Assembly (NCBI GenBank): GCA_050084515.1 | Contig: CM114271.1 | Span: 7,502,001 to 7,566,000, forward strand | Length of the DNA stretch: 64,000 nt | From: Blasia pusilla | Lineage: Eukaryota | Direction of reading: 5' to 3' | Shown: piece after piece, positions 5,590-64,000 of the stretch | Layout of the letters: each line of letters starts with the position of its first letter | How positions within the stretch are numbered: position 1 is the stretch's first letter | The notes under the pieces: generated by a model | What the model saw: only the letters and a program-made list of their open reading frames with translations | Database searches by the model: none | Told to the model about the DNA's origin: nothing | Made by a program: the position numbers and the translations under genes

Positions 5590-8500
5590 TTTCATGTGCA
5601 TACACATTGCTACAAAACATACATTGCTGTCACCAAACATACACACAAACACACACAATCCTATGCCAACTCATGGTATCCAAACAACAAGACAAGAAGT
5701 AACAAAATATCTGCAATAAAATAGCATCCAATCTCTCTCACATGTGTGCACTCTCACATATCTCTTTTAATGTCCAACCAAATCCATTCTCCTAATGAGA
5801 GGCTTGGGTTACACACACAAGGCAAACAAGACCATAGCTGCGTCCCCTCATGCCAAGAGGTTCAACAAAGAGAGAATGAGCTCTCAAGCTCTCTCTCCTT
5901 AAGGTATATCCCTCCCCTCTCCCAAACTCTCTCCATGGTAACCTATGCTCCCAAGTCACCTCCTTGGCTCTTGACCTGATATAGGAGGTTAAGGGCCACT
6001 TACCAAAAATATAAAGTCGACCATATACTCAAAATGGTACTTACCTAAAATAGAAAGTTTCTCAATATAGCTCCAAATGAGACGAAACGAAGGGGAAACT
6101 TGCTCTCTTTGGTTTTCAGAGGCCTCAGAAGGTCATCCTCGACCTCTTGAGCCTATCCTCCACTACTTGTGAAGGCGCTCTACTATATCTCACAGATCTA
6201 TTCTAAAAGACGTGACAGTTGTCGTGCGCATACACATCGCTATCATCAAACATACACACAAACACGCATGATCCCATGCTAGCTCATGGCATCCAAACAA
6301 CGAGACAAGAACTACCAAAATATCTCCAATCACCCCCTTAGCTGGTGGTTAGATCCTTCTAACTCCAGATAGCCATCTATCCCTACCTACCATGACATAC
6401 ATCTCTTGGACGATAAGAGCGAGAAGGTCGGGTGCTCATATGGCCCCATTTTTAGTCGCCTTCTTGTCATCCATGTCACAGACACAAGTCAGAATGTAGA
6501 ACTACCTACTCTATGTACATCTGGGACATAGCCATCGTCCCTGAGGAACCCTAGTGAGAGGTGGCGTCAAGCATGCCATATGCCATCCTCTCGAACATCC
6601 ATTACAGACTAGCATAGTGGCTCCACCACGGGAAGAACCACACAACATACATTGCAAGCCTGTAGAAACTAGTGCTAAGCTCAGATCATCTGTATCGTCA
6701 ATGTTCGGAAGGTGACACGGCGCATAGTTACGCACATGGTCCGACCTACCCAATAAGATTTCCTTCTAAACTCCATGACAACATGAAAATGCCACAAAGA
6801 TTCAAAAAAATCCTATTGAAACCATACCATCGCGTCCCTCCAATAAGAGAACACCTGATGGCAAAACCTCTCGCACTCTCAAGACGGTGGGCCTTGCAGT
6901 CACATCCAACATCGTGGGTGCCGTCTGCTACAAGTAGACATAGTCTCCGTGATGAAACCTCCGGATAGTAGGTCGATAACCATCTCCACGAATAGTCGCA
7001 TACCTCAACGTATCCCGACGTTACGCAATCGCAAAGTTCTCAAATGCCATGGGCATCACTCTCAAAATAACTCAACCCTCTCACAATATGCTCGCATCCA
7101 TACATGAGGGTCATCAAGGTTCAACACCTCACCAGTATCTAGACAAATGGCCGCAGGTAAATGTGGCTCTCGGCCATAAAGCAACAAGTTCGGTGAGAAA
7201 GACGCTAAGGATGCCTGCATGCTAAATCTGTATCCCATCGCCAACCACAATAACTTAAGGTCCCAATCTCCTAGGTGACCACTTTGCAAGCCATACTTGC
7301 GTTTTCCTCTCTTCACTGTCTACATAATTTGCTCCGCTAGTCTATCTACCTCAAGATGATCTCGCGAAGTAGTACAATGGTCAATGAGTGCCTGATCACA
7401 CAAGGCCTAAAACTCCCTGCGGAACTCTGTACCCTGGTCTGTCAACACCTCAGCTGGTGCGCCGTAATGACTCAACACTTGATCTAGGAAGGCATACGCT
7501 ACTCCCTCACTCGCTTTGTCAGGCAATGCAACCAATTCTATCTACTTCGAGAAGTGCTCAACCATCACCAACACATAACAACTATGGCGCTCTGTCAAAG
7601 GCAAGGGTCATGAAAAATCCAAACTCCATCTATAACCTAAGCCCATGATCGGAATAGGATGCAACTGTGGAGTCGGAGCATTGAACGATGCTCGCACCCG
7701 ATCACACACCATGCATTTGGCAACAAACTGTTGAACGTCAGTCTGCATGCCTTGCCACCAATACTGAATCGGGAGCAAGCTGTACGTCCGCTTCACTCCA
7801 AAATGACCCAACTCCTCCTAGGCGTGACGCACCAAACGTGCTCTCTACGAAGGATGAGGCACAACACGCACTCTACCATCCTCCCACACTCGCAACACAT
7901 GTGTGCCCTCCCACCGGAATCGTCTGGCTCGCTGTAGGATCCGATCCCGCTCTCTAGCACCCATTGTGCTCGTGACGCTGCGAGTACACAGGTACTCCAA
8001 GACGACTCCATCGTCGTGAATGACTTGGCCACCTATCATCTCCTCACCCGCCTCTAGATCTAAGGACTCTCTATCAGACCTCGCCATCAAAGTCTCAAAA
8101 ATCTGGCTCTCCATAGCCAACAAGCCCAAATAGGCTGAGGCATGCCATCCTAGAACCAACTCCTCACCACTCTCACCATGCCAACGAGCTCAAGTTACAT
8201 CTCACTGACTCGGGAATGGGTTACGGCTCAAACCATCGGCATCCTGGTTGAGCGTCCCACGTCTTTGCACCACTTGGAAGTCATACTCCCTCATACGAGT
8301 TATACTTTGCCTTTGCAGCGTTGTTCGAGCAACTAATGGAAGCCACCATGAACTCTCTACCATCATCGTCATGTTGGGTGAGCAGGCTCCAAGCCCCAAC
8401 ATGCTCCAATTGATATGCAACTGGAAAGGAGGCCCCCTGATTGGTCTCCTCAATATAGGCGCGGACATCAATCTGTCCTTCAGCATTTAAAATGCTCTCT

Positions 8501-9942
8501 CCTGCTCATCCCCCCAATGCCACTCCTAATCCACCTTGGTCAGCAACGTTAGCGGCTTCGCAATCAAACTAAAACCCTTGACGTACCATCTATAGAAGTT
8601 CGCCAATTACATGAGTGCACGAACTCGACTCACATCTATAGGGCGTGGAATGTGTGAAATAGCCTCTACCTTTGTCTAATGCACACCAAAGCCTCCTCGG
8701 TATATCGTATGACCCAGGTACTCAATCTGGTCGTAGAAGAACTTGCACTTGCCTGGATGTAGCTTCATCCCATGTTATTGCAATCATTGAAACACCTCCT
8801 CTAGATGTCGCTCATGCTCCTCAACCGTGGCGCTAAAGACTACGATGTCATCAATATAACACCTAGCAAAATCCAGACCTACCAAGATCCTATCCATGAC
8901 CCTCTGAAACTCAGCCGGGGCGTCCTTTAACCCGAATGGTAAGAACCGCCCGTGGTACAAACAATCCTTCCCGTGAGGATCGATGCCCCAAAATACCGTC
9001 TTCAACGTGTCCTCCAATCTGATAGGCAGCTGATGGTATACGACTCGCAAATCCAATGAATTGAAGACCTTTGCATGCCCAATTGCATCAAAGATCTCCT
9101 CAAGGGTGGGCATGACATACCGATCGAAATTTGTCTGCCAATTGATTGGTCGGTAATCTCCACACATCCGCCTATCCGTCCAGTTGCCATGCACATCCTT
9201 CTTGGCGGGCATGATAGTGGCAGATGCATACTCTCCATGTGACATCTCCACTAGTCTTGCTCCAACAAAGGCCTGGCTCCTACTTTGAATCAAAGCCCTC
9301 TCCATGTCACTGTACCTGTAGGGTCGTCGGAAGATCGGCATGTCACTCGACAACTCAATGCAGATCCCTAGACCCTTCAGTGTACCCAAATCATGCATAC
9401 TAAATGCAAAACAACTCTTATAACTCCTAAGGAACTGGTGTATCCCACGTTGCTCTCCTCCTTTCAACTAAGGGCCCATATCTGGCTCCCAAGTCTCCAT
9501 CATGACTACGGTAGGACTCTCCGGCGCAGATGTCGGTGGCTGCTATGGTGCAACCCCGTCTCGCACAATAGAACTCTCATCTCCACGTGTAGTACCCGGA
9601 ACCACGCTTGATGTTGTGGCTATCATCTCTTGGGGTACCTGCAAAAAATCCCAAGAAGTCCAAGGGTAAGTCCAAGGGTGTATCGATGTCCTCGAGTCTC
9701 GCCCCCAGCCACTTCCTCAACCATCTCGGTAGGCATGGGGCTCACCAACGCAACTTTTGTGATCTATTGTATCCTCAAATGATGTTGCTCAGCTACTCCT
9801 AGGCTGAAAATCCATGTCAAGCAGTTCAGGTCCATCGCTTGACCCAAGACATGACATCTTGATGCCTCCGATGGTGACGGTACTGCCGTCACTCTTGTGG
9901 GGAATCCCATCGCTTGCTCTTGCTCATCGGCATTGGGCTCCA
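5590..9942 (-). mobile_element. PHD-gypsy family copy 2: 5'-truncated (DNMT C-terminus, RT, RNaseH, integrase, PHD, B-AC-A-B end)
   Basis: RT with YIDD (8784-9467), RNaseH (8202-8486), integrase HHCC (7608-7811) and PHD (6511-6753). The DNMT tail 'ADEQEQAMGFPT...VLGQAMDLNCLTW' is at ~9810-9942. Terminal repeats B2 ~5590-5717 and B1 6220-6330. Confidence 0.9.
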
Positions 9943-12900
9943 CTATGAGACTTTTGGAGTAGGAGCAAAAGTCTCATAGTAGTCAAAACCTTTGATTTGT
10001 GAACACCCTTGTGCAACCAACCTCGCTTTGAATTTATCCAATGTACCGTCCGACTTGTACTTGGTCTTGTACACCCACTTGGTGCGTATTATCTTCTTGT
10101 CCTTTGGCTTCTCAACCAAAGTCCAAGTTTCATTTCTTTGAATAGCATCCATCTCCATCTGCATGGCCTCTCTCCATTAAGAATGAGCAAGGGCCTCATC
10201 CAAGCATGATGGCTCTTCCACCTTCAAGACCTCTGTCATCAAGGCCATGTTGACGAGATGTGCGAAAGCTCTATTCTGCTCCTCTAGTCTCTTGGATCTC
10301 CTTGAATGTGTAACAACTTCATCAGTTGCAGGTGGATCCTTACCATCCAAGAGCTGCTTTATCCACTTAGGGTATAACGACCGTAGTGGAAGACCGGGCT
10401 GCTCTTTGTAATCATCACCAAATTCTTCTTCTTGATGATCTGGTGTAAACATTGGTGGTATGCTTTGGTGGGTTATCTCTTTGTTTGATGATAATGTGGA
10501 CGGACCACTGATATCCGCCACTTGACGAGGTTGTTCCTAAAACACCACATCACGACTCACAAGCATCTTCTTTGCCTTAGGACACCATATGCGATAAGCT
10601 TTAGACTCATCACTATATCCCATAAAGATGCACTTTTTGCTCTTGGACTCCAGCTTGGTCCTGGATGCTTCAGGAATATGTACAAAGCACTCACTACCAA
10701 AAGTCCTGAAATGTTGGACTGATGGTACCTTATCTGAGTATGATTGATGAGGAGTCATGCCTTGCACTAACTTGGTAACACTTCTATTTGGAATGTAACG
10801 ACACTATTAACATCTTTAGCCCAAAATTCTTCTGTCAAACCTTTTTCTTTCATCATACATCTTGCCATCTCCACCACTATATAGTTTCGACGCTCAACAA
10901 CTCCATTTTATTGTGGTATATGTGTTGTGGTTAACTTTCACTTGATTCCATGCTCCCCCAAATATTTGTTGAATTCTGTTGATAAGAATTCTCCTCCTCA
11001 ATCGGTGCAAAGCTTTTGTACCTTCTTTCCTATCTCATTCTCAACCAGCTTGTGCCATACTTTAAATTTTCCAAAAGCACTTGCCTTACCACGAGGATAT
11101 ACACCCACATCTTCTTACTATAATTTTCGACAACTAAAATGAAGTAGGAAGAACCACCTAATGCCACTATTCTCAAATTACCACAAAGGTCAGCATGAAT
11201 CAGCTCTAGAGGAGCCTTTGCTCTATTGCTAGACTCTTGTGGAAATGGTTGTCGGTGTTGCTTGCCCATCATACAAGCTGCACATGTATCCGCCACTCCA
11301 AAAATTGTTGGAAAATCAACAACCATGCCAGATTTCTGCATCTGACTTAGTAAGGGAAAGCTTACGTCATCAAATCTTTCATGCCATAACTTACTGCTAC
11401 TAAGATCTATACCTACACTTGTCCTGAAGCATACAACTCATGGATATTTCCAGGTGGTATACCTTCACCGACTACTTTCCCATTGGCATCCTTAATGATT
11501 GCTCAAGTTTTCTTGAAACGAACTTCTAGGTCACGATCACATAATACTGCACTGAAATTCAAATTGCGCTTCAACTCTGTTACGTACAGTATATCAGTTA
11601 ACTTCTTTTATCTCCTTTTTGTGAGACTTAAGAAATTGAACCTTTCCCTTCTACACGGCACTTGCATTAATACCAACAATAACAACGATGGGCTCATGTA
11701 GAGGCTGTAAGGAGCTATACCAATCCTTATGATTGGTCATATGCCTAGATGCTCCACTATGGAGCACCCATGCATCTTCACTCTTTGACTTAGTGGAATG
11801 TTCTGCCTGTGTGCAAAACTCTTTGATTGCTACCCAAGCATCTACTTCATGTTCTCTTAGTTCTACAAAATTTCCAGACTCCTTCTTAGGTCTTAAACAA
11901 CCGTTCTTCTCATCCTGACTCCTCTTTCTACAATCTTTGATAAGATGACCTAGCTTACCATAATAAAAGCATTTGAAGGCTTTCCTTGGAAATTTCTTCT
12001 TGACATTTGAAATGTAATCATGATTTCTACCTCTCTGTACGTTGGCAGTAAATGTTGCATCACTTCCCTCTCTTGCTTTGAAGCGTATTTCCTCTTCTAC
12101 CAACATTGGACTAAATTGTTCAAAAGTAAGCGGCGTGGGTCTTACTTGAGTATTCAATGCAGTGACCAAACTGTCATACCTTGGAGGAAAAATCCTTATG
12201 CACTGACGTGCCAAATCTTCGCTAGACTTTGAAATTCCTATGGACGCCATTTGATCTTGAAGATTCTTGATCCTTGTCAAAAATTGCTCCACGCTTTCTC
12301 CTTCTAAAAATTTCTCTGACGTAAGCTGATTCTCCATATTTTAAATCCGAGTCTTATTCCTCATTTCATATTTTCTTCGGAATGTTCCACGCCTCAGCAA
12401 CAGTGGTCGTATGTTGAATGAGAGTCATTATAGAATCAGTTACATTCATGACAATCGCACATAGAGCATCAACGTTTATGTGTTTCCATGCCAGCAATAC
12501 AACAAGATCGATATCACCAAATGAAGATGATCATGCAGAACTCAAAGTAGCTTGTGGATTCGAATCGATCCTTGTGGATGTCTCCCAAATCTCAAATGAT
12601 TCGAGGACAGCTCTCATTTTGAACTTCCACAATGTATAGTTAGACCCATCTAACTTCCCTTCAACCAACGGGGGAGGGCAAGCATGAACTGACGAAGAAG
12701 TAGCCATCTCTCAAGATTCTGTGCAAACACACTAGATCGCCAAATACAAAATACTGGAAAACCTATTGCTTTGATATCATATGAGAAAACAAAAGTGACA
12801 AAATCACTGAAATCTTTATAAAACTTAGAGAAACAAAGTGGCCTAGTTCGTCCGTGCGCTCACAGAAGAGCTTCGATGGAACTTGAACATGGAGATAACT

Positions 12901-13589: not shown

Positions 13590-13802
13590 CTCGGGGGTCT
13601 CACTTCCACGGAAGAGACCCATCACGTATGACAAAGTATAGGGTTTTTTAATTCGATTTCAGAGAAGACTTATAAAGTTTTGTGGAAGAACTTAAGGATA
13701 TTTTTAATATAGAGAAACACTTATAATAACAATAGGGCATTATTAATTATAAGTCTGTAGATGGAAGATGTTTAAGGTAGTAAGAGGCAGATAAAAAAAG
13801 AT

Positions 13803-14725: not shown

Positions 14726-14843
14726 TTTGTTTTTTTATTCATGTTCAAATTTTGTTCCAACCATTGGATTGGATTTTGTTCCAACCATTGGATGATCTCT
14801 AGTCCTCTAGACAATCTCTAGAGGACTAGAGATTGTCTCCCAA

Positions 14844-48469: not shown

Positions 48470-49855
48470 TATCGTGCGCATACACATCGCTACACAACAT
48501 ACGTCGTTGTCACCGAACATACACACAAACACGCACGATGCCATGCTAACTCATGGCATCCAAACAACGAGACGAAAAGTACTAAAATATCTCCAATAAA
48601 TCAAGATCCAATCTCTCTCAACACCATAGCTCTCAAATGTGTGCACTCTCATATGTCTCTCTCAATGTCAAACCAAACCCACTTTCCTAATGAAAGGCTT
48701 GGGTTACACTCACAAGGCAAGCAAGACCATAGCTCCGCCCCCTCATGCCAAGAGGTTCAACAAAGAGAGAATGAGCTCTCAAGTTCTCTCTCTCTTGGAG
48801 GTATACCCCCTTCCCTCTCCCAAGCTCTCTCCTCGATAACCTATGCTCACAAGTCACCTCCTTGGCTCTTGACCTGCTATAGCGGATCAAGGGCCACTTC
48901 CCAAAGTGGAAAGTCAACTATACTCCAAATTGAAACTTACCCAAAATAGTAAGTTTCTCTATATGGCTCCAAATGAGCCGAAAAGAAGGGGAAACCTGCT
49001 CTCTCACGTTTCCCGGGGCCTGAGTAGGTCATCCTCAACCTCCTGAGTCTGTCCTCCACTACTTGTGAAGGCGCTCTACTAGATCTCACCGATCTATCCT
49101 AAAAGTCGTGATAGTTGTCGTGCGCATACACATCGCTACACAACATACATCGTTGTCACCGAACATACACACAAACATGCACGATCCCATGCTAACTCAC
49201 GGCATCCAAACAACGAGATGAGAAGTACTAAAATATCTCCAATCGCCCCCCTAGTTGGTAGTTAGGTCCCTCTAACTCCACATAGCCATCTATCCCTACC
49301 TACCATGACATACATCTCTCGGACGCTAAGAGAAAAAAGACCAAGTGCTCATGTGGCCTCATCGTTAGTCGCCTTCTTGTCATCCATGTCACAGACACAA
49401 GTCAGAATCTAGAATTACCTTCTCTATGTACATCTGGGATACATCCATCGTCCCTCATGAACCGTAGTTAAAGGTGGCGTCAGACATGCTATATGCCATC
49501 CTCTTGAACACCCATCACAGACTAGCATAGTGGCTGCACCACGGGCGGAACCACACAACATACACCGCAAGCCTGCAGGAACTACTGCTAGCCTCGGATC
49601 AACTATACCGTCAATGTTAGGAAGGTGACATGGCGCACAGTTATGCACATGGTCCTTCCAAACCATACTATTGCGTCCCTCCAATAAGAGAACACTAGAT
49701 GGAAAAATCTCACCCACTCTCAAGATGGTGCGCCCTGCAGTCACATCCAACGTCGTGGGTATCATATGTTGCAAGTAGACATAGTCTCCCTGATGAAACC
49801 TTCGGATAGTAGGTCGATAACCACCTCCTCGAATAGTCGCATACCTCAATGTATC
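48470..49855 (-). mobile_element. PHD-gypsy family copy 3: 3' part (integrase C-terminus, PHD, B-AC-A-B end)
   Basis: PHD in ORF 49424-49990; B1 49116-49243, spacer 49114-49115, A 48598-49113, B2 48470-48597. The element continues at 59151. Confidence 0.9.
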
Positions 49856-51789
49856 TGTCACATTTGAGTAGCCGATAGGCCGAGATCTATCGTGGATAGG
49901 GCGTAGGAGCCAGCGGACTATCTTGAGTGTAACTTTGTCCCATAGTGTTGGATGAGGTTGAGGATAGGTCCATTGTGTCAGGAACGTCATTTCTGAAAAT
50001 TTTCATGTTGAGGTCTTTTACAGCCGGGTGACTTGTTGACCAGGTCACCCGCCCCTGGTAACCTGTACGCGCAGGTTACCAAGGGGACGGCTATTTTTAG
50101 GGGATGAGCCTTTTGGCTCTTCCCAACCCTATATAAGAGAGGAAGATGGCTTTACTAAGCCATCTTTCTCATGTTGGGCGGTTGGAGCATCTCCCTTGTA
50201 TGTGTGTGAGATAGGACTAGGGTGCTAGCGTCCTGATTCCTTGATAGCACAGGGTGGACGAGGCTCGATATGCCGATGTAAATTGAGGAGTGGAGTTTTA
50301 GGCCAATTGTGCCATTTTTACTATTCTTTATTTTTACATGAGAAAGATGTCAGGGGGCTGGTGGGAATTCGTCGTTGCAGGTAGGCAAGCGAGTTGCCTT
50401 GGTTGGGAGCCCGTGGAGACGTTGGTTGGCGTCGTATTTGTCATTTTTTTTGTTCGGAAGACCGTGGGCGGAAGCGCTGTCCGTTTTTCTCAGATTTTGT
50501 TGGTGCACAGGGATTGGGGACAGCGGCAGAGTGTAGTACGGAGTGGGCGTCAGGTGTACGCAAGTGAGGGTGTCGAGAGAGAGAAAAAAAAAAGAGTTTG
50601 AGGCTTGCAGCCATCGGGGGCTGTCAAGTAAAAGCGGCTAGCTAGGGGTCTAGAACTAGGGTTAGGGCGCGGACGGGAAAAAGAGCGGCGACGGGTGGAA
50701 GGGCGCAGACAGGCAGCGACGGGTGGAAGGGCATGGACGGGCGGCGACGGACTTTGGGGAGGCCCGCGTTCTCCCCACCCTCCAACCCCGCATTTACATC
50801 CCATAGGGGTTTGGGCCCGTAAGGCCCTCCCACCCCCCGTCCTCCCTCTCTTCCACCGTAGTTTGAGAGGGTTCCCCCTCCCCTGCATTTAGTACCCTAT
50901 AGGGATGCAGGCCCGGAAGGCCCCCCCCCCCCCTCGCATTTAGGACCCAAGGAGCCCGCATAGGGCCGCGGGCCAGGTTTTTCTCCCATCAACGTGGTAT
51001 GGCACATGCGGATGTGGTCAGGACCAAGTGGATGTGGTGGAGTTGCAGGGGCTGAACGTGGTAGGGCAGGCCGACATGGCACCACAGTTGACGGGAGTGA
51101 CGTGGTAAAGTCGGACGTAGTTGGAAGGGAAGACATGGTTGGGGTCCGACGTGGTTGAGTTCGGTTATGCAGTGGAGAGTTCTACGGGACTTAGTGTCTC
51201 ACGAGCGTGGATGGGATTCGCGATAGGACTTTGTCGATTGTTACGAGTAGGTTGGGAGGATGCCTCATTAGTTCTTCACTAACTGGGAATTGCGAGGGTT
51301 GTGATGGGGACATACGAACCTACACTGACGAGAGGTTTGACGTGTTGGTCGAGGAGAGTGTTGTGTTGCGGAGATTGTCATATCATGTGGAGGAGTGCAT
51401 GTTGACGGTGCAGCAGGTTGGAGGGCGTGATCAGGTTACCCATTCGAGTCCCTTTTCCCGCACTTTTCCTGTGTGATTGAGAGTGTTGGTATCGGGTAGT
51501 AGCTGGTGCTAGGTGGGTGCAGTGATGGTGGAGAGTGTAGATTCTTTTCATGTGTAGCATGTTGGTGGATATACGGCGGTTGCCGAGTAGGGGTCGCGTG
51601 TATGACTCGAGAGAGTGTCGCTAGGTTAGGTAAGTCAGTTGGGAGGCTCATGGTGAGCCCGAGTGTTGAGCGTGCGTGGGGCCGGGTATGTCATCACGGG
51701 ATTGATGTTAGCATAGGTGAGCTAGTGAGGCATGTGGGAGACTCTCGGTGAGTCTGAGTGCTTGAGCGGGTGAGACAGGGTTTGTCATC

Positions 51790-54700
51790 ATGGCGTTCTT
51801 CCAAGGTTCAGAAGAACGGGGTAGTGCGAGCAGTAGTAGTGGTGTGACACGGAGTGGAGTGAGATACTGAGGGGTTACCAGTGAGGAGCTACCTCGACAT
51901 CCATCCGTGGCTGGATCGTCATCACTGGACACTGGGTCTGGTGACGAGATCACAGATAGAGACAATAGTACTTGGCAGGAGATGGACGACATGGGCCATC
52001 GGGGCATGCGTCGTTTCTTGGGTGCAGTGGGCACCATTGACTTAGATGATTTTATCCAGTAGTTTGACACATGCTGTGACTTCTTGGAGATACGGACCCC
52101 GACACGATTCAACCCTTTCATGGCATAGAAGGGGTTATTCCAGCACTTGGAGGATCCTCCGATGGATGACTACATGGATTTTTTATCACTATATTCAGTA
52201 GAGATCGATGCCTGGAGGATGTATTGGGCTCCAGGGTATGTGTCCACTAGTGGTCGCGAGGCATATGATGGGATTGTGAGAGGGGAGAGACCCACACCAT
52301 CAGCCAGGAGACTAGATGGAGAGGAGGGCAATGAGACAAGCGATGTGGCAGAGACCTCTGGTGGTAGAGGGCCACCCAGCTTCAGCCCCACAGTGGAGTT
52401 CTTCCGACAGTTGGGGAAGAGCTACTAGGGCATACGCACCAACAAGCTGAAGAGTCTACAGGATTCTCAGCGACGATCGGGTGAGAGTCTGAGAGAGGCA
52501 TTCACACGCATGAGGAGGCTGATCATTGCTACGTTTGGAGTGAGTGAGGTGCAGTCAGTCCAGTATTGGTACGGGGTTTTGGACCGAGAACTACGGAGGA
52601 GAGTCCGAGATGCGGTGCTGATTCACACAGCGAAGCCCACATTGAAGGTGGTCTTTGAGTTGTCTGAGCGTATTGAGCTCAACATGAGTGAGGAGCAGGT
52701 AGTGACCGCTGGATTTTCTCGAGAGTTGACGGGTCCACGAGCGACGGTGACCCCACAGGTGCCACAACAAGCACCAGTACTATGGGAGCGGGCCAGTGTG
52801 CCTAGAGAGCGGGGCGGGTAGCGTGAGCCTATGAGGCAACGACCCGTACCTACATATGTTGCCCAGCAAGGACCGATGTGGTCTTGTAGGACGTGTGGAG
52901 GGGCCCATGGGCAGAGAGACTGCCCACAGCATGGAGAGGACCACCACTGCCTCCGATTGCTCAAGAGCCACAGAGGATGGCCCACCACAACACCAGTGTG
53001 ACCATTGCCACAGATATGGTCACACTAGGGATAGATGTTTTGACCTTTGCCGAGGGGCACGTCCAGAGGTAGGCCGAGGGCCTGGGGGCGGTCGTCCTGG
53101 AGGAGGTTGGGGAGTTCACCCTGGACGTGGTGGTAGAGGACCACCACCAGCCAGAGGAGATGAAGCAAGAGCACCAGACCTGGCACTTCTCTCATGCATC
53201 GATCAGTTGGAGCAGAGGATTGCTGCCCTGATGATGATGCAGCTTAGGGAAGGCACGCAGTTGCAAGCAACTAATGTGACTCCAGCTTTTACCTCTTACC
53301 TTGACCCGGGTGAGGATCTCGCCAGTATGGGATTTATGTATAGTGCATCCCAGGTTGAGGCAGCTGTAGTGGTGACTCGGGGTGCTGCGAGAGGCACCGA
53401 GCCATCGAGAGGTGGAGTTGAGATTGACCCACCAGAGGGGACCGATGGGCGGCAGGCCAAGGTTCCATAGTCGTTCACATTGTCGGAGGCACTACAGACA
53501 CCATCGATGGTGCCTCGACGACGAGCGGTGCCTACAGTTCAGGCACCAACGTCGACGTCACGAGGAGTTGGAGTGACAACTCCTATGCTGGCTTGAGTGG
53601 AGTCAGTGTTGACCATAGTGTTGGAGGTGGCCACCAGAGTGAGTCAGACTCCGCTATTTTCCGCCCTAGAGTTGGCGACGTTGGGGGTTAGACCAACTGA
53701 GGTGTTCTGGTTGGCTGCCACGTTGTGTGAGCATGGAGAGATGACCGCTTCTTGTTCAGAGGTAGTTGAGGAGGTGGTGGACTTGCCCTCAGAGCCGGTG
53801 CTTGGGACGTTTCACACAGAGTCATGGCATGCGGCGGTGGCGAAGTTGGTAGATATGCCAGCTCGACCGGCCATAGAACGAGCAGTGGTGACACCTGGAG
53901 TAGTGTTACTGGATAACCGAGCTGGAGTATTTCGCTTGGTTAGTTCGACGAGGACAGTATACCACTTGTAGCGCGTCTTACTTGATTCGGAGCGCAACCC
54001 TTGATGTTAGGGAAGGCGGCGTGTTTAGCATTGGGGTTACGGAAGGCCGACATTGAGCCTTGTCCCTTCTAGATACAGACCTCGATTGGGGGCGTATCAC
54101 CCACTCAGTATATGACTCGACATGAGATTGTTGTCAAAATCCAGCCAGAGCATGCGACGGATAATGCTGTGGTGCGCACACGTGCGATTACGACACCAGC
54201 TGAGTCGTACGATGTGTTGGTGGGGAGTACAATGTTATATCCCCTAGGATTCATCCTTGACACCGTTGCTTATCAGCCAGGATGGCGGTCAGGTGACGGC
54301 CGGATGAGTCAGTTACCCTTGCAGTTTGCGGGACGAAGTGGTCAATCACGAGGCGAGTCTGTGACCACGTTGGCAGCTTTCACAGGTAGTGTTAGCTGGC
54401 CAGGAGAGTTGTTGGAGGGGAACGCACATGCGGAGGATGTCCCAGTAGCGGATAGTCCTATGGAGAGACAGGCCATGGCGGGTGTCTCTTCCCATGTTGG
54501 CGAGGCCTCTTCACCATTGTGGGGTACGACTCGAGAGCTACAGAGGAGTGCCGACGACCTCGTGAGGCAGGCGTGGGGTCATGTTTTTATCCCAGAGCAG
54601 CGAGAGTCACGTGGCGATTGGGCTCTTGGAGTGGAGACGTTCACCCCATTGGATACCACACCTGTTGTGTGGCAGTGCCCAGAGGAGGGTGTTAGGGTGT

Positions 54701-57700
54701 TAGATCTCTTCGGAGGGATTAGCACCAGATTGGCTGCACTATTGCAGGCGGGCATACGGGTGCATCAGTACCTTTATGACGTAATGATACCGCACGGCGA
54801 GTATCATTACGTCACGTGGCAAGATTGGTCCAAAGGTATCCTGAGTTGTTGCCGGTATATGTAGTACGGGGATATCATTATACGCTACCTGCCGACATCT
54901 CTTTGGTGGGGATGCAGGATCTAGATAGAGTTGGCACCATTCATTTGGTGATTGTTGCGAGTATTAAGACACTTGCAGGAGAGTCAGATATGTTCTCCAG
55001 CGTACATTTTGGAGAACGTGCCATTTTTGGGAGACACTCGTGCACGTGTGGTGACAAGTGTACATCAAGTGAGGTCCTGGTTGGGACCTGCTGTGTTGTT
55101 AGATGCAGCGAGAGTTGGGTCACGTGCCCATTGTCAACGATTGTGGTGGACGAACCTGATACCATCAGAGGTACTGAGTCGAGCATACGGTGGAGTCCAG
55201 AGAGCACCACATCTCATAGTGGATGCTATTTTGGGCTTAGGGCGTCGATCTCAGGTGGTGACACGGGATGATAGACCACCGTTGGCCATGGCCAATAGGG
55301 TGCGGGAGTTGAGGGCAGCCTTACCTACGTTGGTGAGCTTCCAAGCATCCCATGCCTTTTGTCAGGGAGGGCCAGGCATGATTTGGGATGAGGTGATCGG
55401 AGCATTGGAGGAGCCTACAGCAGATGAGCGCGAGCGCGCCATGGGGTTCACTATCGGTACTACGGCGGTGCCAGGGATGACTGAGGCATCACAGAGATAG
55501 GTGTTGGGGCAGGTGATGGACCTCTACTGTCTCACATGGATAGTCAGCCTAGGTATGGCTGAGCATAGACGGATGCGAGTGTCATCCATGCCGTCACTTC
55601 CACAAGTTGGACCATTGCCTACAGGGTCTGTAAAGGCATTGGTTGGGGCGAGACGAGGAGAGATAGGCACCCATGGACTTCTTGGGACGTCGCTCGAGCA
55701 GAGAGTGCAAATGCGGCTAGAGTAGCACATGTTCATTTTTGAGATGTGGAGCATGGTGTAGGAGGTTAGAGTGGAGTGGTTGTTGCGGAGGTGGCTAGGG
55801 TTGCTACATAGCAACCAAAGCCGGAGGTTGCGTCCTCTTCGAGTGAAGTCACGATGGAGACTTGGGAGCCTGTGATAGGTCTCAAGTTGATAGGAGGAGA
55901 GCGACGGCGAGTTCATAGGTTTCTAAGAGGGCATGTGAGTTGTTTTTCCTTCAGTATGAGAGACTTGGATACGTTGAAGGGTCCCGGAATACGGAATGAG
56001 TTGGCTAGTGATACGCCAATCTTTCGTCGACCCTACAGGTATTCTGATATGGAGCGAGCATTGATTCAGAGTAGGAGTCAGGACTTGTTGGAGGCAGGAC
56101 TTGTGGAGTTATCACATGGGGAGTATGCATCTGCCACAGTCATGCCGGCGAAGAAGGATATGTATGGCAATTGGAAGGATAGGCGGATGTGTGGAGATTA
56201 CCGTCCTATCAACCGGTGACGAGGTCGATCGGTGCACGCCATGCCTACTCCTGAGGACATCTTTGATGCGGTAGGGCATGCAAAGATCTTCAGTACTTTA
56301 GATCTCCGTGCTGGCTATCACCAGCTTCCTATCAGGTTGGAGGACAGGGAGAAGACAACATTCTAGGGGATAGATCGGTTCAGGAGAGATTGCTTGTATC
56401 AGTGGCGGTTCTTACCATTTGGGTTGAAGAACGCGCCTGCAGAGTTTCAGAGAGTGATGGATAGGATTTTGGCTGGCTTGGATTTTGTACGATGTTACCT
56501 AGATGATATTCTTATCTTCAGTTCCACGGTTGAGGAGCATGAGCGACACTTGGAGGAGGTGTTTTGGCGATTGCAGTTACATGGACTGAAGTTACATCTA
56601 GGCAAGTGCAGATTCTTTCAGGAGCAGATTGAGTACTTGGGACACACCATATACCCGAGTGGGTTAGGCGTTCAGCAGACGAAGGTAGAGGCTATTGCGC
56701 AGATTCCACGCCCTACAGATGTGAGTCGAGTTCGAGCATATCTTGGACTGGCAAACTTCTATCGACGGTATGTCAAGGGTTTTAGTGCGATCGCAAAGTC
56801 TTTGACCTTGTTGACGAGACTTGATCTCGTTTGGTTGTGGGGAGATGATCAAGAGCGAGCATTTCAGGAGCTCAAGGACAGGTTGATGTCCTTACTCATT
56901 TTACAGAGACCGGTTAGGGGTCGCCCATTCTAGTTACATACGGATTGGAGCATGTTGGGTCTAGGAGCAGTGCTTACTCAGAGGGATGACGAGGAGAGGG
57001 AGTTCGTTGTGGCTTACGCGAGCCGATCGAACAACATTGCAGAGGCGAAGTATAGCTCCTACGAGGGAGAGTGCTTGGCTGTAGTGTGGGCCGTGGCACA
57101 TTTTAGGTGCTATTTTTTCGGCAATCCTTTCACACTTATCACTGATCATCAGTTGTTGAGGTGGTTGATGGAGTCCGACAAGCTTACGGGAAAGCTTGCC
57201 AGGTGGGCTCTATTACTACAGGAGTATGAGTTTGAGGTGGTTCATAGGCCAGGTCGGCTGAACCAGGATGCGGATGGGTTGAGTCGTAACCCATGTCCGA
57301 GTCAGAGAGACGACATAGTAGCTCGATGGCACGGAGAGAGTGATGAGGAGATGGTGCCCGGTTGGCATGCATCTGTCTATCTTTTTTGGTTGACTATGGC
57401 AAGTCAGCCACAGGTGATGACTCTAGTGGTGGGCCGGGGTTGGATGATGCGTCTTTGGATCCAGAGGTTAGTGAGGAGGCGACAGGTGGTCGTGATATCC
57501 ATGACAACGTGGAGGTTGTGGAGTTCTTGCGCACTGGTGTCATTGCGAGTATAGTGAGTGCTAGGGAGCGGGATCGGATTCTACAGAGAGCCAAGAGGTT
57601 CAGGTGGGAGGGGACTCACATTTTGCGGGTATGGGGAGATGGTAGAATACAAGTGGTACCCCATCCTTCCCAACGAGCACCTGTAGTGCGACAATGCCCA

Positions 57701-58938
57701 TGAGGAGTTGGGACATTTTGGAGTAAAGCGTACTTACAATTTACTCCAAGTTCAGTATTGGTGGCGCGGCATGCATACTGGGGTACAGCAGTTTGTGGCC
57801 AGATGTATGGTATGTGACAGAGTGCGAGCATCCTTCAATGCTCCCACTCCGCAGTTACATCCTTTGCCGATTATGGGTTTAGGTTATCGATGGATTTTAG
57901 ACTTTGTGGGACCTTTTCCATTGAGGGGACGTCATCATAGGTATGTGTTGGTCATGGTGGAGCATTTCTCCAAGTGGATAGAGTTGGTGGCACTACGAGA
58001 CAAGGCGAGCAAGGGAACAACTTATGCGTTTCTAGATCGTGTGCTTAGTCACTTTGGTGCACCGGCGGAGGTGTTGACTGACCAGGGTACCGAGTTCAGG
58101 GGAGAGTTTCAGGCCTTGTGTGATCGGGCGTTGATAGATCACCACACCACGTCCAGAGATCATCCTGAGGCATATGGGTTGGCGGAGAGAGTGGTACAGA
58201 CGATGAAGAGAGGATTGCGCAAGTATGGCTTGCAGCGGGGACAGTTGAGGGAGTGGGACCCACAGTTGCCATGGTTGGCTATGGATTATCGCTTTAGTCG
58301 GCAAGCATCCTTGGCGTCATTTTCACCGTACTTTTTGCTCTTTGGGAGAGAGCCAGATTTACCTGCAGCAATTTGAAGTGACATGGCGGAGGTGTTAGAT
58401 CTTGATGATCCAGATGTGTGGGTACAAGCATGTTCTCAAAGGGCACAAGTTTTTCGTAGAGTTATGCCTATGGCCTTTGAGAACTTAGCTATTGCCCAGC
58501 ATAGAGATACATTGAGGTACGTGACCATTCGTGGAGGAGGTTATCGTCCAGGGATTAGGAGGTTTCATCTTGGAGATTACGTGTATTTACAAAGAGCGGC
58601 ACCCACGACGCTAGATGTCATCAGAGGGCGCCACGATCCTACGTGTGCGCGAGGTATTACTGACCGGAGTCCTCATGTTGGAGGGACGGGATGGTATGGT
58701 TTGGAAGGATCATGTGCGCAATTGTGCGCCATGTCATCTTTCGAACGTAGATGGGATGGTGGATCCGAGCTTGGTAGTGATACCTGCAGGCTTGAGGTGT
58801 ATGTTGTGCGGATCTGCAAGGGGTGCAGCCACCATGTTGGTATGTGATGGTTGTTCTCGAGGGTGGCATATGTCATGTCTGACCCCCCCTCTTGATGTGG
58901 TTCCCACGGGACGATGGATGTGTCCGAGATGTGTATAG
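51790..58938 (+). pseudogene. gag-PR-DNMT-RT-RNaseH-INT-PHD polyprotein (stops/frameshifts)
   Basis: Zinc knuckles CRTCGGAHGQRDC and CDHCHRYGHTRDRC; protease 'VLLDSG' ~53975; RT YLDD (56394-56933); RNaseH (56952-57300); integrase HHCC + D,D,E (57708-58376); PHD (58795-58935). Confidence 0.9.
54685..55560 (+). pseudogene. DNMT3-like C5 cytosine methyltransferase domain within pol; catalytic loop deleted
   Basis: Motif I 'VRVLDLFGGIST', motif VI 'YILENVP', motif VIII 'DAARVGSRAHCQRLWWTNL', motifs IX/X 'ERERAMGF...VLGQVMD'. Confidence 0.88.
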
Positions 58939-59150
58939 GGTAGTAGGTCATGTCAGAGAGATGTGATACTTTCTATCTGGAGTTGGGGGGATCCAACTGC
59001 CAGCTAGGGGGGCGGTTGTGTGATCTCCATGTATATGTATGAGTTGATTTTTGTACATGTGTGGATCGACCCGTGTGTGGAAGATCGGTGTTGTGTGGTG
59101 TAGATGTGACCAGCGATGTATGTTGTGTAGCGATATGTATGCGCACGACA

Positions 59151-62100
59151 TATCTCGATGTTGCGCAATCGCCAAGTTCTCGAACGCCATGGGCATCACT
59201 CTCCGAAATAACTCAGCCCTCTAAGAACATGCTTGCATCCATACATCAGGGTCATCAAAGTTCAACACCTCACCAACATCTCAACGAATGGTCGTAGGTA
59301 AATCAGGCTCTCGGCCATACAAAAGCAACTATTGTCAGAAAGACGCTAAGGATGCCTGCTTGCTGAATCTGTTTCCCATTGCCAACCATGGAAATTGGAG
59401 GTCCCAATCTCTTAGGTGACCTTTCTCCAAGCCATACTTGGTAGTCCTCTCTTCACCGTCTACACAACCCGCTCCGCTAGTCCATCTCCCTTAGGATGAA
59501 ATCGCAAAGTAGTGTGGTGGTCGATCAGTGCCTGATCACACAAGGCCTAAAACTCCCCGCGAAACTCTATACCCTGGTCTATCAACACCTCAATTGGTGT
59601 GCCGTAATGACTCAACACTTGATCTAGGAAGGCATTTGCTACTCCCTCACTCACTTTGTCAGGCAATGCAACCAACTCTATTCACTTCGAGAAGTGCTCG
59701 ACCATCACCAACACATAACGACTATGGCATTCTATTAAAGGCAAAGGTCTTGAAAAATCCAAACTCCATCTATAACCTAAATCCATGATTGGAAGTGGAT
59801 GCAATTGTGGAGTTGGAGCATTGACCAATACTCAGACTCGATCACACACCATGCATCTGGCAACAAACTGGTGAACATCAGTTTGCATGCCTCGCCACCG
59901 ATACTGAATCTGGAGCAAGCTGTACGTTCGCTTCACTCCAAAATGACCCAACTCCTCGTGGGCATGACGCACAAACATGCTCTCTGCGAAGGATGAGGCA
60001 CTACACGCACTCTACCATCCTCCCAAACTGGCAACATATGTATCCCCTCCCATCGGAACCCTCATGCTCGCTGTAGGATTCGATCTCGCTCTCTAGAACC
60101 CACTATGCTTGCGACGGTGCCAATTGAAGGTACTCGAGACCACTCCATCGTTGTGAATGTCTCAGCCACCTGTCATCTCCTCACCGGCCTCTGGATCTAG
60201 GACTCGCCATCGAAGTCTTAGCAATCTGGCTCTCCATAGCCAACAAGCCCAAATAGGCTGACGCGTGCCATCCTGGCACCAACTCCTCATCACTCTCACC
60301 ATGCCAACGAGCTCCAATTGTATCTCGCGCATGGGCTACGGCTCAAACCATGTGCATCTTGGTTGAGCATCCTAGGTCTATGCACCACTTGGAAGTCATA
60401 CTCCTGCAACAAAAGAGCCAACCTCGCAAGCTTCTCTGTAAGCTTGTCCGACTCCATCAACCACTTAAGTGGCTGATGATCACTAATGATGGTAAAGGGG
60501 TTTCCAAATAAATAACACCTGAAATGTGCAACAACCCACATCGCAGCCAAGCACTCACCCACATACGAGCTATACTTTGCCTCTGCTGCATTGTTTGAGC
60601 GACTAGCGTAAGCCACCATGAACTCTTTACCATCATCGTCATGCTGGGTGAGCACGGCTCCAAGCCCCAACATGCTCCAATCGGTATGCAACTGGAAAGG
60701 ACGCCCCCTGATTGGTCTCCTCAATATAGGCGCTGATGTCAATTTGTCCTTGAGCAAGTGAAATGCTCTCTCTTGCTCATCCTCCCATTGCCACTCTTGA
60801 TCCACCTTGGTGAGCAAGGTTAGCGGCTTTGTAATCGAACTAAAACCCTTGACGTACCATCGATAGAAGTTTTCCAATCCCATAAATGTACAAACTGGAC
60901 TCACATCTATAGGGCGTGGAATGTGTGAAATAGCCTCTACCTTTGTGTGTTGCATACCAAGGATCCCTGGGTATATTGTATGACCCAAGTACTCAATCTC
61001 GTCGTAGAAGAACTTGCACTTTCCTGGATGTAGCTTCAGCCTATGTAACGGCAATCGTCAAAACTCCTCCTCTAGATGTCGCTCATGCTCCTAAACCGTG
61101 GCGCTAAAGACTACGATGTCATCAATATAATACCTAGCAAATTCCAAACCTGCCAAGATCCTATCCATGACCCTTTGAAACTTAGCCGTGGCATTCTTTA
61201 ACCCAAATGGTAAAAATGGCCACTGGTACAAAAAATCCTTCTCGTGAGGATCGATGCCCCAAAATGACGTCTTTTGCCTGCCCTCTAGTCTGATAGGCGG
61301 TTGATGGTATCCGACTCGCAAATCTAACAAACTGAAGACCTTTGCATGGCCAATAGCATCAAAGATCTCCTCAGGGTGGGGCATGGCATACCTATCGGAC
61401 TTTGTCTGCCGATTGATAGGTTGGTAATCTCCACACATCCACCTATCCGTCCAGTTGCCATGCACATCCTTCTTGGCGGGCATGATAGTGGCAGATGCAT
61501 ACTCTCTATGCAACATCTCCACTAGTCCCACTCTAACCAAGTCCTGGCTCCTATTGGAAATCAGAGCCCTCTCCATGTCACTGTACTTGTAGGGTCGTAG
61601 GAAGATTGGCATGTCTCTCGACAACTCAATGCGGATCCCTGGACCCTTCAGCGTACCAAAGTCATGCATACTAAATGCAAAGCAACTCCTATAACTCCTA
61701 AGGAACTGGTGTATCCAGCGCCGCTCTCCTCATGTCAACTTAGAGCCCATTTCTGGCTCCCAAGTCTCCATCGTGACTAGAGTAGGACTCTCCGGCGCGG
61801 GTGTAGGTGGTTGCTATGGTGCAACCTTGTCTCGAACAACAGAATCGACTGCTCTCCTCCAACCAACTGCAAAATCGGATCTCCAGGTGTAGTGCCCAGA
61901 ACCATGCTCAATGTTGTGGCTACCATCTCCCGGCGTACCTGAAAAACATCCCAAGAAGTCATAGGATGTCTCTCTCGATCATCCGTGGTGTGTCGATCTC
62001 CTCGAGTCTTGCCCCCAACCAGTGCCTCAACCGTCTCGGTAGGCATGGGTCTCACCAACGCAAAAAATGTAATATGTTTCATCCTCAAGTGACCCTGCTC

Positions 62101-64000
62101 AGCCACTCCTAAGCTGAAAATCCATGTCAAGCGGTTCAAGTCCATCACCTGACCGAAGATATGATGTCATGATGCCTCTAAGAGGAACGGTATTTTCGTC
62201 ACTCCTGTGGGAAATCCCATCGCTCGCTCTCGCTCATTGGCGTTATGCTCCACCAACCTTTACATATGGTCATCCCAAACCAAGCCAGGTCGAGCCTCCT
62301 TGAATGCATAGGAAGCGGGAAAACTCACCAATGTGGGAAAGGCTGCCTGTGGCATGCCAATCCTGTTGACTACAGTCAACGGAAATCCATCATTGTGCCT
62401 CACTGCTTGTGATCGACGACCTCGATCCAGAATTGAATCCACCAAAAAATCAGAGGGGTGCTCCACTCTTGCATGCACCCTCTATAAAACCTCATGTGGC
62501 ACCAAGTTGGTCCACCAAAGACGCGGGCAATGTGTTCGTGAACCTACACTCGCCGCATCCAACCACACTGTTGAGCCGATCCATGCACGCACCTGATGTG
62601 CACTCATCACCACACGAGACCTCAAATCGCCCAAAATCGGCACATTCTCGGGAATGTATGCTGGAGAACAAGACTAATGCTCCTTTAAATATTGTAGGAT
62701 CCGCATCTTCTCCCAAAACAACCTGGACCGCGAGTCAACTAATCCGCTACCCCGTCCAACACTCGACTGGCCTTGACACGGCCAACCAACAATGACCAAG
62801 TCTATCGTCCCTACCCGCTTCAAGTCCTACGCCCCCAACAATGAAATGTCCCTTGGTAGAGAACTCTAGTATGCCTGGACAACGGACGCAGACAACAAGT
62901 CGGGAAAACGAAGGCGTAACTGCGCCACATGGCAAAGTGAAGCGCGCCTCGTAACATCATCAATCTCCACATACAGGTACTATTGTATGCGTACTCTTGC
63001 TTGCAAAACAGTAGCTAACCTAGTGCTGGTCCCTCCAAAGAGATCCAACACCCAAATACCCTCCTCTGAGATGCACCACACAATTGGGGTGATGTCCAAA
63101 GGGGTCATCATAGCACTCTTGGCTACCTTGGGTTTCTCTGACCCGTCATGCTCTTGTGCAAACGTCTTGCTCCACACGGTCTGCACATGCTCAGTGGTTA
63201 AACATCGAAGCTCCTCAGTCGAGCCTCAAAGAGACACCACTCCTCTCCATAGAAATGTTAGGAACATGAGTGTCCTTTGCATGGACGTGTCTCTCAATCA
63301 AATCACTAGGCCAAGTGATGGCCCTGCTAAATGCTGGTAAGGTCGCGATCTCTCTTGGCCGGCGCTCAATCACTGCACCTGTGAATCAAACGGGTAATGA
63401 GCTAAGGCGCCGATCATCTTATTGCCATCCTAGTCTATAGGACGTCGACTCCTCCAAATAATCCAGGGAAAACCCCATCGGGTACAACACTGCTCCACCA
63501 ACCAAGACTTTGCAGGACTCTACATCAGTCACTATCGCCTTGGCTCGCACCACGGACTCATCTGTAGGATATCCCGGACGAATCCTCACCACAACCTTCT
63601 GTCAGGTGATATACTCTATGGTACTCGCTCCACCCAAGAATGTATGTATCCAGAATGGACAACGATCCACATCGGTCCTCGTCAAGCCCAAACCTTTGAA
63701 TACTGCTTTCCCCAACATCATGGGTTGCGCTCCTGAATCCAACAAGATGCGTTGCGGACTAAAAGCTCTACCTCCTAGACTCACCAACTGGAAGACCTCT
63801 CCTTGGTTGTCTAGCAAAAAAACACCAAGAGAAGCCATGGCAATCTGTGTTGCGGGTCTAGCAGGTATCTCTGCCATCCTAGCATCCGTAGCCTGCCAAG
63901 AATCTGACGTGGACAGCCCAAGCATCAGCTCCAAGGACAGGCCCATCACCTCCTCTGCAATCACCTCTGAACATGATGCAGGAACTCCAACTCCACGCTC
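59151..64000 (-). mobile_element. PHD-gypsy family copy 3: internal part (protease, DNMT, RT, RNaseH, integrase); continues beyond the window
   Basis: Protease 'ILLDSGAQP' (63602-63964), RT YIDD (61091-61669), RNaseH (60296-61054), integrase ~59151-59960. Confidence 0.92.
62100..63065 (-). pseudogene. DNMT3-like C5 cytosine methyltransferase domain with intact PCQ motif
   Basis: 'IWVLDLFGGTST' (62980-63186); 'LVIVGWPCQGQSSVGRGSGLVDSRSRLFWE' (WPCQ = 62784-62773); 'YIPENVP'; 'RLWWTNL'; 'ERERAMGFPTG'. Confidence 0.9.

Follow-up and report, generated by a model that had tools for sequence, protein, structure and literature searches.

The stretch of Blasia pusilla DNA analysed here (64,000 nucleotides from contig CM114271.1 of assembly GCA_050084515.1, forward-strand positions 7,502,001 to 7,566,000; hereafter the window, numbered from its first letter) contains copies and fragments, four in all and every one degenerate, of a single retroelement family with Ty3/gypsy-type proteins, in which a DNA methyltransferase (DNMT) is encoded between the protease and the reverse transcriptase (RT). 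The explanation that best covers the whole, and in which we have considerable confidence, is that these are four decayed copies of the streptophyte Gypsy-DNMT3 lineage and that their DNMT3A/B-like enzyme is dead in the window. The identity of the family, its layout, its conservation and its integrase-type insertion are established by the results given below. A preliminary description of this DNA had already proposed a Ty3/gypsy element with a non-permuted, DNMT3-like C5 cytosine methyltransferase in this position, and the Pfam profile PF00145, a profile of the family and its predicted fold all bear this out.

The domain of copy 2 (62083..63117, minus strand) is interrupted by seven stops and preserves all motifs in a single frame. 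Over the wider interval 62080–63258 (minus strand) that frame contains eight in-frame stops, seven of them inside 62083–63117, and no frameshift. Motifs I (VLDLFGG), II (YVEID), IV (GWPCQG), VI (PENV), VIII ((C)PRLWWTN), IX (ERERAMGF) and X (GQVMD) follow each other in the linear canonical order I–X; motif VIII reads HCPR as against HRxR. When the stops are replaced by X, the translation (P0001) matches PF00145 with 33 bits against a cut-off of 22 (E 5.8e-8), and seven of the eight relatives scanned pass as well. None of five single-frame DNMT fragments, three from copy 1 and two from copy 2, reaches PF00145 at E<=1. The domain of copy 1 (54640..55578, plus strand), located by tblastn with the Calypogeia domain, is broken into three pieces (54640–54777, 54780–54959 and 54952–55578) lying in two frames, with two frameshifts and one stop at 55498–55500; about 25 codons including the motif IV PCQ loop have been deleted (query residues 116–140 are unmatched). 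Copies 1 and 2 share 56% protein identity over 179 residues and about 65% DNA identity. Three copies of the domain, the third of them a tail, had been announced for the window, with the motifs in canonical order. Their coordinates proved right to within about 50 bases and the motif set is complete and in canonical order in copy 2, but WPCQ is missing from copy 1; the tail consists of the last 58 residues (9773–9946, minus strand).

On its sequence and its modelled fold the domain is a non-permuted C5 cytosine methyltransferase, with DNMT3A/B the closest among solved methyltransferases. When P0001 was compared with PDB sequences by phmmer, DNMT3A ranked first (2.2e-4) and DNMT3B second, followed by DRM2 (0.026) and M.HhaI (0.04). 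A family profile and an AlphaFold model were built on a 19-member alignment (A1). With the profile DNMT3A was found at 1.8e-22 and DNMT3B at 1e-20, followed by tobacco DRM (4e-11), DRM2 (1.6e-8), M.HhaI (1.8e-8) and DNMT2 (4e-3); DNMT1 was absent from the matches at E<=0.01. The AlphaFold model (mean pLDDT 86, pTM 0.82) was compared with the PDB by Foldseek, and the matches listed (ranks 1–50) are all DNMT3A, 3B or 3C, with E from 5e-17 and a TM-to-target of about 0.8, at an identity to DNMT3 in the structural alignments of just 17–21%. We use the term "DNMT3-like" because of this ranking by profile and fold and because of the published placement of the homologous enzyme of Klebsormidium nitens. 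The DNMT3A and DNMT3B of animals and the DRM2 of plants resemble the family in fold and in motifs I, IV, VI, VIII, IX and X; the motif order is permuted in DRM, whereas it is linear in the family and in DNMT3. Unlike canonical DNMT3 the family has neither a PWWP nor an ADD domain by Pfam, a gag zinc knuckle and the protease being all that lies upstream of the DNMT, and the enzyme is embedded in a Gag-protease open reading frame (ORF).

A 182-residue fragment of copy 1 retrieved 648 cluster representatives at E<=1e-3 from among 1.84 billion proteins, 328 of them at E<=1e-10 and 14 at E<=1e-30. Since there are hundreds of significant cluster representatives, the match to DNMT is not due to chance. 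The named members come from liverworts (Calypogeia fissa, and several gene models of Marchantia polymorpha including Mp_8g17980), peat mosses (Sphagnum fallax and S. troendelagicum) and algae (three Closterium strains, and K. nitens GAQ93235.1, P0159), and further DNMT homologues lie on many metagenome contigs. The preliminary claim that this is a feature of a family and not a one-off capture thus holds well beyond the window. An IQ-TREE analysis of 37 domains unites the window copy with Calypogeia and Marchantia in one clade (SH-aLRT 100), and Klebsormidium and Closterium form a separate group (90). A scan of IMG/VR returned only phage-type methylases, as partial matches of 28–48% identity, and no retroelements. 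The phage C5 methylases (L001–L031) resemble the N-terminal half of the family DNMT and have AGW[PE]CQG-like motifs; they are distant relatives.

Judged by these sequences, the family belongs to the Gypsy-DNMT3 lineage already in print and is hence not a new kind of element. According to the text of de Mendoza et al. (2018, Nat Commun 9:1341), the K. nitens gypsy element KnitGypsy-Dnmt3 has Dnmt3-related domains in its Pol ORF, the key residues of its DNMT are kept with a Ka/Ks below 0.2, and the K. nitens copies make up a divergent Dnmt3-related clade; a figure legend of that paper describes DIRS-like repeats, "A-coding-B-A-B". The window family likewise has a gypsy-type polyprotein with a non-permuted DNMT3-related domain, A-coding-B-A-B repeats and purifying selection on the DNMT. 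K. nitens GAQ93235.1, which we assume to be a published copy, matches the copy 1 fragment at E 1.5e-18 and shows the Pfam order zf-CCHC, aspartyl protease, DNA_methylase, that is, the gag-protease-DNMT order of the family. It has 34% identity over 422 residues to the Calypogeia relative (E 7e-58). The window family differs from KnitGypsy-Dnmt3 in its streptophyte host, in having liverwort elements as its nearest relatives, in the protein identity of no more than about 34% between the K. nitens protein and the liverwort group, and in that the window copies are pseudogenes. It had been said of such elements that they were not known as a standard feature in land plants, and this agrees with our full-text literature searches, in which de Mendoza 2018 was the sole description and which returned no report of DNMT-carrying gypsy elements from bryophytes or other land plants (supplements or figures might list them). 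The passages of later papers that touch on the lineage say only "streptophytes", citing de Mendoza 2018. The REXdb classification paper mentions no methyltransferase, PHD, Marchantia or Klebsormidium, and a 2022 review of land-plant transposons leaves transposon-borne DNMTs unmentioned.

Conservation was counted over 95 distinct family domains. The catalytic Cys is present in 94 of the 95, the Glu of ENV in all 95 and its Asn in 94; the two motif VIII arginines occur in 91 and 94, and the second glycine of motif I, which binds S-adenosylmethionine (SAM), is again invariant (95/95). The Pro of motif IV is replaced by Glu (ECQ) in 44 of the 95, with the Cys retained. In the 19-row alignment GWECQ is confined to rows that do not belong to the PR-DNMT (streptophyte-type) group; it is unusual among C5 methyltransferases.

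Ratios of nonsynonymous to synonymous substitution (dN/dS) were calculated pairwise by the method of Nei and Gojobori for pairs with 0.05<dS<1.5, among relatives only; the window copies lie outside these estimates because at about 65% nucleotide identity their dS is saturated. Between intact natural copies (L065, L067 and L068) the dN/dS of the DNMT is 0.10–0.13 (three pairs, dS up to 1.4), as one would expect of the selection on this domain that had been proposed from the window alone. The corresponding values are 0.05 for RT, and 0.02 for both RNase H (the L065/L068 pair) and integrase; seven other intact RNase H pairs, with dS of 0.09–0.24, gave 0.47–0.86. The sequences thus indicate that the DNMT is under purifying selection in those lineages which stay intact, and that this selection is weaker than on the replication enzymes. 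The putative catalytic competence of the intact relatives is supported by these two lines, the conserved residues and the purifying selection.

One could still suppose that the domain is a neutral passenger, a fragment of a host DNMT3 captured once and now decaying with no role in the element. All of the window copies and most of the fetched relatives are indeed broken, and copy 1 has lost its catalytic loop. In these dead copies, however, decay extends alike to RT, RNase H and integrase: stop-free full-length matches in the fetched loci number 8 of 30 for DNMT, 4 of 19 for RT, 9 of 21 for RNase H and 4 of 13 for integrase. The same domain is moreover found in the same place from Klebsormidium and Closterium to liverworts and Sphagnum, and the low dN/dS between intact copies, maintained to a dS of 1.4, goes with retention of the catalytic residues. 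We regard a neutral passenger as extremely improbable.

The anatomy of the relatives was worked out from 80 related loci on metagenome contigs, and it places the enzyme differently from what had been thought. The preliminary description had it simply inside pol; it is instead the C-terminal domain of the first ORF (gag-protease-DNMT), which a conserved in-frame stop separates from the RT downstream. ORF1 of the intact locus L065 encodes 1359 amino acids with protease and DNMT, and past a single TAG the same frame continues for 1047 amino acids with RVT_1, RNase H, integrase and a PHD finger; L068 has the same layout downstream of gag. DNMT and RT share a frame in 31 of the 42 loci in which the end of the DNMT and the start of RT are both present, and in 36 of these 42 the nearest stop ahead of RT, read with the two codons after it, is TAR CAR YYN (TAG CAA CCC in 20, TAA CAA CCC in 10, TAG CAG TTA and TAG CAA TCA in 2 each, TAG CAA CCA and TAG CAA CCT in 1 each). 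In the window the stop at the DNMT/RT boundary is TAG CAA CCA in both copies, at 55809..55811 (plus strand) in copy 1, where it is the putative leaky end of ORF1, and at 61814..61816 (minus strand) in copy 2. Plant viruses of the tobamovirus type use UAG-CAR-YYA as their leaky-stop signal. Because of this signal we read the ORF1 stop, by analogy, as a putative site of programmed read-through. Since the stop follows the DNMT, the enzyme would be part of the abundant Gag-protease product and not of the rarer RT-integrase product. The complete element is made up of repeat A, a long leader, ORF1 (gag-protease-DNMT), TAG, ORF2 (RT-RNase H-integrase-PHD), a polypurine tract and the repeats B-A-B.

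This layout also bears on the gene models of Marchantia, Calypogeia and Sphagnum, which might be seen as domesticated, element-derived host methyltransferases of which the window holds dead relatives. Models such as Mp_8g17980 (1248 amino acids) do have an intact gag-PR-DNMT ORF, and a UniRef name reads "DNA (cytosine-5...". Yet the models retain gag and protease, those of Marchantia and Calypogeia terminate at the ORF1 stop of the element, several are fused to RT, RNase H or integrase (P0006, P0011), and related loci are multi-copy with target duplications. Domestication appears to us very improbable.

Copies 1 (plus strand) and 2 (minus strand) lie head-to-head in the 52–64 kb end of the window. 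Copy 1 (49856..59150, plus strand) is a 9,295-bp insertion inside copy 2; we conclude that it is nested there because copy 3 is uninterrupted at the place where copy 2 is split. The empty-site joint, 49851 to 59151, is found in reads and contigs of other genomic copies. Copy 1 begins with the 5' terminal repeat A1 (49856..50335, plus strand), which starts TGTCAC as do the A2 repeats of copies 2 and 3 and in which the sequence reads TATATAA at 50130–50136. The remaining features of copy 1 are all on the plus strand. Its gag region (51982..53470) starts with the ATG at 51982, is broken by stops and was read beside the Marchantia protein P0004, the N-terminus of which recovers the same gag region in related loci by tblastn. 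The protease region (54073..54500) was defined by phmmer and tblastn alignment beside the Pfam aspartyl-protease matches of relatives; the protease ORF of copy 1 alone has no Pfam match. Downstream of the DNMT and the stop are RT and RNase H (55812..57350), in ORFs homologous to the RVT_1 and RT_RNaseH regions of relatives, the integrase core (57687..58376), in an ORF aligned with their rve and Integrase_H2C2 domains, and a C-terminal PHD finger in the integrase ORF (58798..58932; Pfam PF00628, 45.3 bits, E 8.9e-12). The polypurine tract AGCTAGGGGGG (59002–59012, by sequence reading) is the same in loci L078 and L080. A single repeat B (59015–59150) closes copy 1; its end is shared with L078 and L080, and the A2-B2 of complete relatives is absent.

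The 5' part of copy 2 (59151..64000, minus strand), mapped by self-BLAST and ORFs, comprises protease, DNMT, RT, RNase H and most of the integrase, and the copy continues past the end of the window. Its 3' part (48470..49855, minus strand) holds the end of the integrase with the PHD finger, the polypurine tract and the repeats B1 (49114–49266), A2 (48621–49113) and B2 (48470–48620), all on the minus strand. Copy 3 (5590..9946, minus strand) is truncated inside the DNMT and comprises the DNMT tail, RT-RNase H-integrase-PHD, the polypurine tract and B1 (6201–6353), A2 (5741–6200) and B2 (5590–5740), again on the minus strand. A copia-type RT fragment at 9950–10400 (minus strand; WVYKTKYKSDG...KARLVAQG), identified by eye, cuts copy 3 inside the DNMT. 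Copy 4 (2078..4503, plus strand) is a 3' fragment with the end of RNase H, the integrase, the PHD finger and the 3' repeat region, and has no DNMT part.

Copy 1 ends TGTCAC...CGACA and is flanked by a 4-bp target duplication, TATC, at 49852–49855 and 59151–59154. No long terminal repeats (LTRs) linking its ends, direct or inverted, were found by repeat finding, blastn-short or Smith-Waterman alignment; the best local score of the last was 31, while 30 shuffles gave at most 29. The complete loci L078 and L080 account for this arrangement. Each has a repeat A of about 340 nt, a leader of about 1.1–1.5 kb, the coding region, the polypurine tract and then B-A-B, with a repeat B of about 115 nt, TG..CA ends and 4-bp target duplications (AAGG in L078, CATA in L080). 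Directly upstream of the DNMT element in L080 there is an unrelated gypsy-type RT/RNase H (4162–6276 of that locus, plus strand) with 33–48% identity to those of the window. In L034 the A-coding-B-A-B layout runs off the end of the locus. The order in window copies 2 and 3 is polypurine tract-B1-A2-B2, with a B1-A2 junction, ...CGCACGACA-AC-TGTCAC..., that consists of the two element ends joined. For the subfamily of copy 1 both junctions exist in DNA contigs of the same species, the B-to-A joint (59150 to 49855) and the A-to-B joint (50335 to 59015, on the 50333–50344 side), and complete members of that subfamily must therefore exist; the B-to-A junction is present in RNA reads too. Copy 1 probably lost its A2-B2 by recombination between the two B repeats.

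The family thus shares features with two known types of element. In common with a canonical Ty3/gypsy LTR element it has TG..CA ends, a short target duplication (4–5 bp in the canonical element) and a polypurine tract, but split repeats stand in place of the two long terminal direct repeats. The A1...B1-A2-B2 layout is that of DIRS/Ngaro-type elements, including SymbioDIRS-Dnmt3; these DIRS-like elements, however, use a tyrosine recombinase, whereas the family has a DDE integrase (rve, Integrase_H2C2), 4-bp duplications and TG..CA ends. A single primer-binding-site pattern, a 12-mer of the initiator-Met type, had no match in the elements at <=2 mismatches.

The nearest solved structures to the PHD finger are those of CHD4, PHF12, DPF2/3, KDM5A/B PHD1, PHF21A, MLL3, ATXR5 and AIRE. 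Most of these PHD fingers read histone H3 unmethylated at K4, which by analogy suggests that the finger may target the integrase to H3K4-unmethylated chromatin. Chromoviruses also carry a chromatin-reader module on the integrase C-terminus, in their case a chromodomain; Pfam found no chromodomain at that position in the family, where the PHD finger stands instead. The PHD-bearing LTR elements of green algae have, as does the family, a PHD reader on the integrase C-terminus. A passage of de Mendoza 2019 mentions PHD fingers in retrotransposons, citing Kapitonov and Jurka 2003 and Perez-Alegre 2005; the word "PHD" is absent from the main text of de Mendoza 2018.

The window domains were also mapped onto all fetched proteins in order to sort those with a complete DNMT. 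Fifteen have the order of the window, protease-DNMT-RT, and 66 the order RT-RNase H-DNMT-integrase-PHD; 20 more are too short to classify. The second order was confirmed by Pfam for a "pol" of Scenedesmus sp. PABB004 and for metagenome proteins, and models of Haematococcus lacustris and Chromochloris zofingiensis likewise have the DNMT between RNase H and integrase. One H. lacustris model, P0173, reads INT-PHD-RT-RH-DNMT-INT-PHD (INT, integrase; RH, RNase H), and therefore covers two adjacent or nested elements. In the chlorophyte gypsy elements DNMT, RT, RNase H and integrase are all homologous to those of the window family, and both layouts close with the same PHD finger; the difference is in the position of the DNMT, between RNase H and integrase in the chlorophytes and between protease and RT in the window family. 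In a FastTree analysis of RT-RNase H (9 versus 25 rows) one branch, with a support of 100, parts the two layouts. The DNMT tree puts them on opposite sides of a branch with a support of just 4.6, its backbone being weak; a support of 82 from a FastTree run is given no weight. The simplest reading of this unrooted comparison is one acquisition of the DNMT and one relocation, in either direction. More broadly, we would tentatively entertain an ancient green-lineage clade, extending from chlorophytes through charophytes to bryophytes, in which the DNMT may have moved once. In its streptophyte branch the enzyme may be made at Gag level by way of a leaky TAG, and this branch would combine split repeats with a DDE integrase and a PHD finger of the H3K4me0 type.

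Three RNA-seq runs of the same species placed 185, 200 and 252 reads on the window copies (an index search of sequencing runs listed no RNA run). Reads at least 99% alike number 2 of 185, 7 of 200 and 2 of 252; because nearly all are 95–99% alike, they come from other copies. The depth ranges from 0 to 8x, and on copy 1 it is 3–8x over RT-INT-PHD and <=1.4x over gag-PR-DNMT. Candidate causes of this imbalance (51204–59213) are related families without ORF1, a shorter RNA, or divergence of ORF1. Provided that the libraries are stranded in the usual way, the strand bias is compatible with sense transcripts. Related copies are transcribed at a low level, which says nothing on the copies in the window.

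How might such an element use its methyltransferase? In active relatives Gag, protease and DNMT together would be the principal product of translation, and RT, integrase and PHD finger would be made only upon read-through of the stop. Released by the protease or tethered to Gag, the enzyme might methylate the DNA freshly copied from the element itself, while this is still in the particle or soon after it has been integrated. Guided by the PHD finger, insertion would favour chromatin unmethylated at H3K4, and new copies would come to resemble host DNA that is already silenced. Self-methylation of this kind is the mechanism that we prefer, as a possibility and not yet as a probability.

A number of results count against the picture drawn here of a DNMT3-like enzyme in the service of its element. 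The DNMT copies of the window are pseudogenes, none of them able to make an enzyme, and in the fetched loci 22 of 30 full-length single-frame DNMT matches contain stops. When all pairs including dead copies are taken, the median dN/dS of the DNMT (0.50, 207 pairs) is the highest of the four domains (RT 0.41, RNase H 0.44, integrase 0.34). RNA depth over the DNMT of either copy is <=0.6x. The ratio of observed to expected CpG is 0.63–0.70 in the copies and 0.47–0.83 in the rest of the window; as the copies are unremarkable beside their surroundings, it says nothing on self-methylation. The second codon after the stop is mostly CCC across loci, and not the YYA of the viral signal. The trees were built from family members and bacterial-type outgroups, and our homologue searches found no canonical eukaryotic DNMT3 among the relatives retrieved. 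Finally, the K. nitens domain produced no methylation in yeast, in what is, judging from the text of that report (PMC5890265), the only published activity test of the lineage; its authors called the result inconclusive, since human DNMT3B failed too.

That yeast result would also fit a domain which no longer methylates DNA, and whose substrate is now RNA of the element, or whose role within a Gag-PR-DNMT protein is structural or one of binding nucleic acid. The end of a Gag-containing ORF is the usual seat of nucleic-acid chaperones, and the ECQ form of motif IV in 44 of 95 members might be counted on the same side. Against it, residues that serve catalysis only are near invariant (the Cys, the Glu and the SAM-binding glycine), and the profile matches DNMT3 at 1.8e-22 versus 4e-3 for the RNA enzyme DNMT2, with the fold also favouring DNMT3. 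We think this distinctly unlikely.

The enzyme could also act in trans, its targets being the host genome or competing elements; it might, for instance, silence rivals or host defence genes. Its place upstream of the stop means that it would be made at Gag level, in excess over RT and integrase, as would suit a soluble and abundant enzyme, and the text of de Mendoza 2018 raises accidental activity on the host genome. The same text, however, describes the methylome of K. nitens as land-plant-like despite the elements, and we consider action in trans unlikely.

The rest of the window contains other repeats and at least one host ORF. An ORF at 4435–4932 (plus strand), flanked by the 3' ends of copies 4 and 3, may resemble the helicase-like N-terminal domain of Helitrons. 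A copia gag ORF with a CCHC knuckle (11651–12340, minus strand) was identified by eye, as was a second copia-like element with gag, protease and RT-like ORFs (21270–25315, minus strand). A tandem array at 13794–14846 has three copies of units of about 340 nt, at 64–96% identity. At 14811–18668 (plus strand) are five long ORFs of 165–279 amino acids, Cys/His-rich at the start and of unassigned family, which may represent a DNA transposon. A long host ORF with an F-box motif lies at 26968–28857 (minus strand), and its C-terminal 340 residues (26971–27990, minus strand) resemble streptophyte F-box/beta-propeller proteins (ESM Atlas, 0.97). This ORF marks the host as a streptophyte, and the affinity of its elements to those of liverworts suggests a bryophyte.

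To the published lineage the present family adds a DNMT that closes ORF1, a conserved TAG-CAA-CCA, a PHD finger on the integrase, and split repeats with TG..CA ends and 4-bp duplications. This anatomy yields hypotheses on dosage (the stop), targeting (the PHD finger) and replication (split repeats with integrase-type ends). There is also a warning for annotation, in that counts of bryophyte DNMTs include transposon ORFs, for example among the DNA (cytosine-5)-methyltransferase models of Marchantia and Sphagnum. The streptophyte case has so far been built on one alga; the lineage is now found in land plants with genetics and methylomes, Marchantia foremost, and its function is therefore testable. 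The biology is paradoxical: hosts rely above all on cytosine methylation to hold transposons in check, yet here a transposon carries a de novo methyltransferase of its own. If the enzyme is active, a de novo methyltransferase borne by a transposon would be at work in bryophyte genomes, outside the host DNMT3, DRM and CMT pathways.

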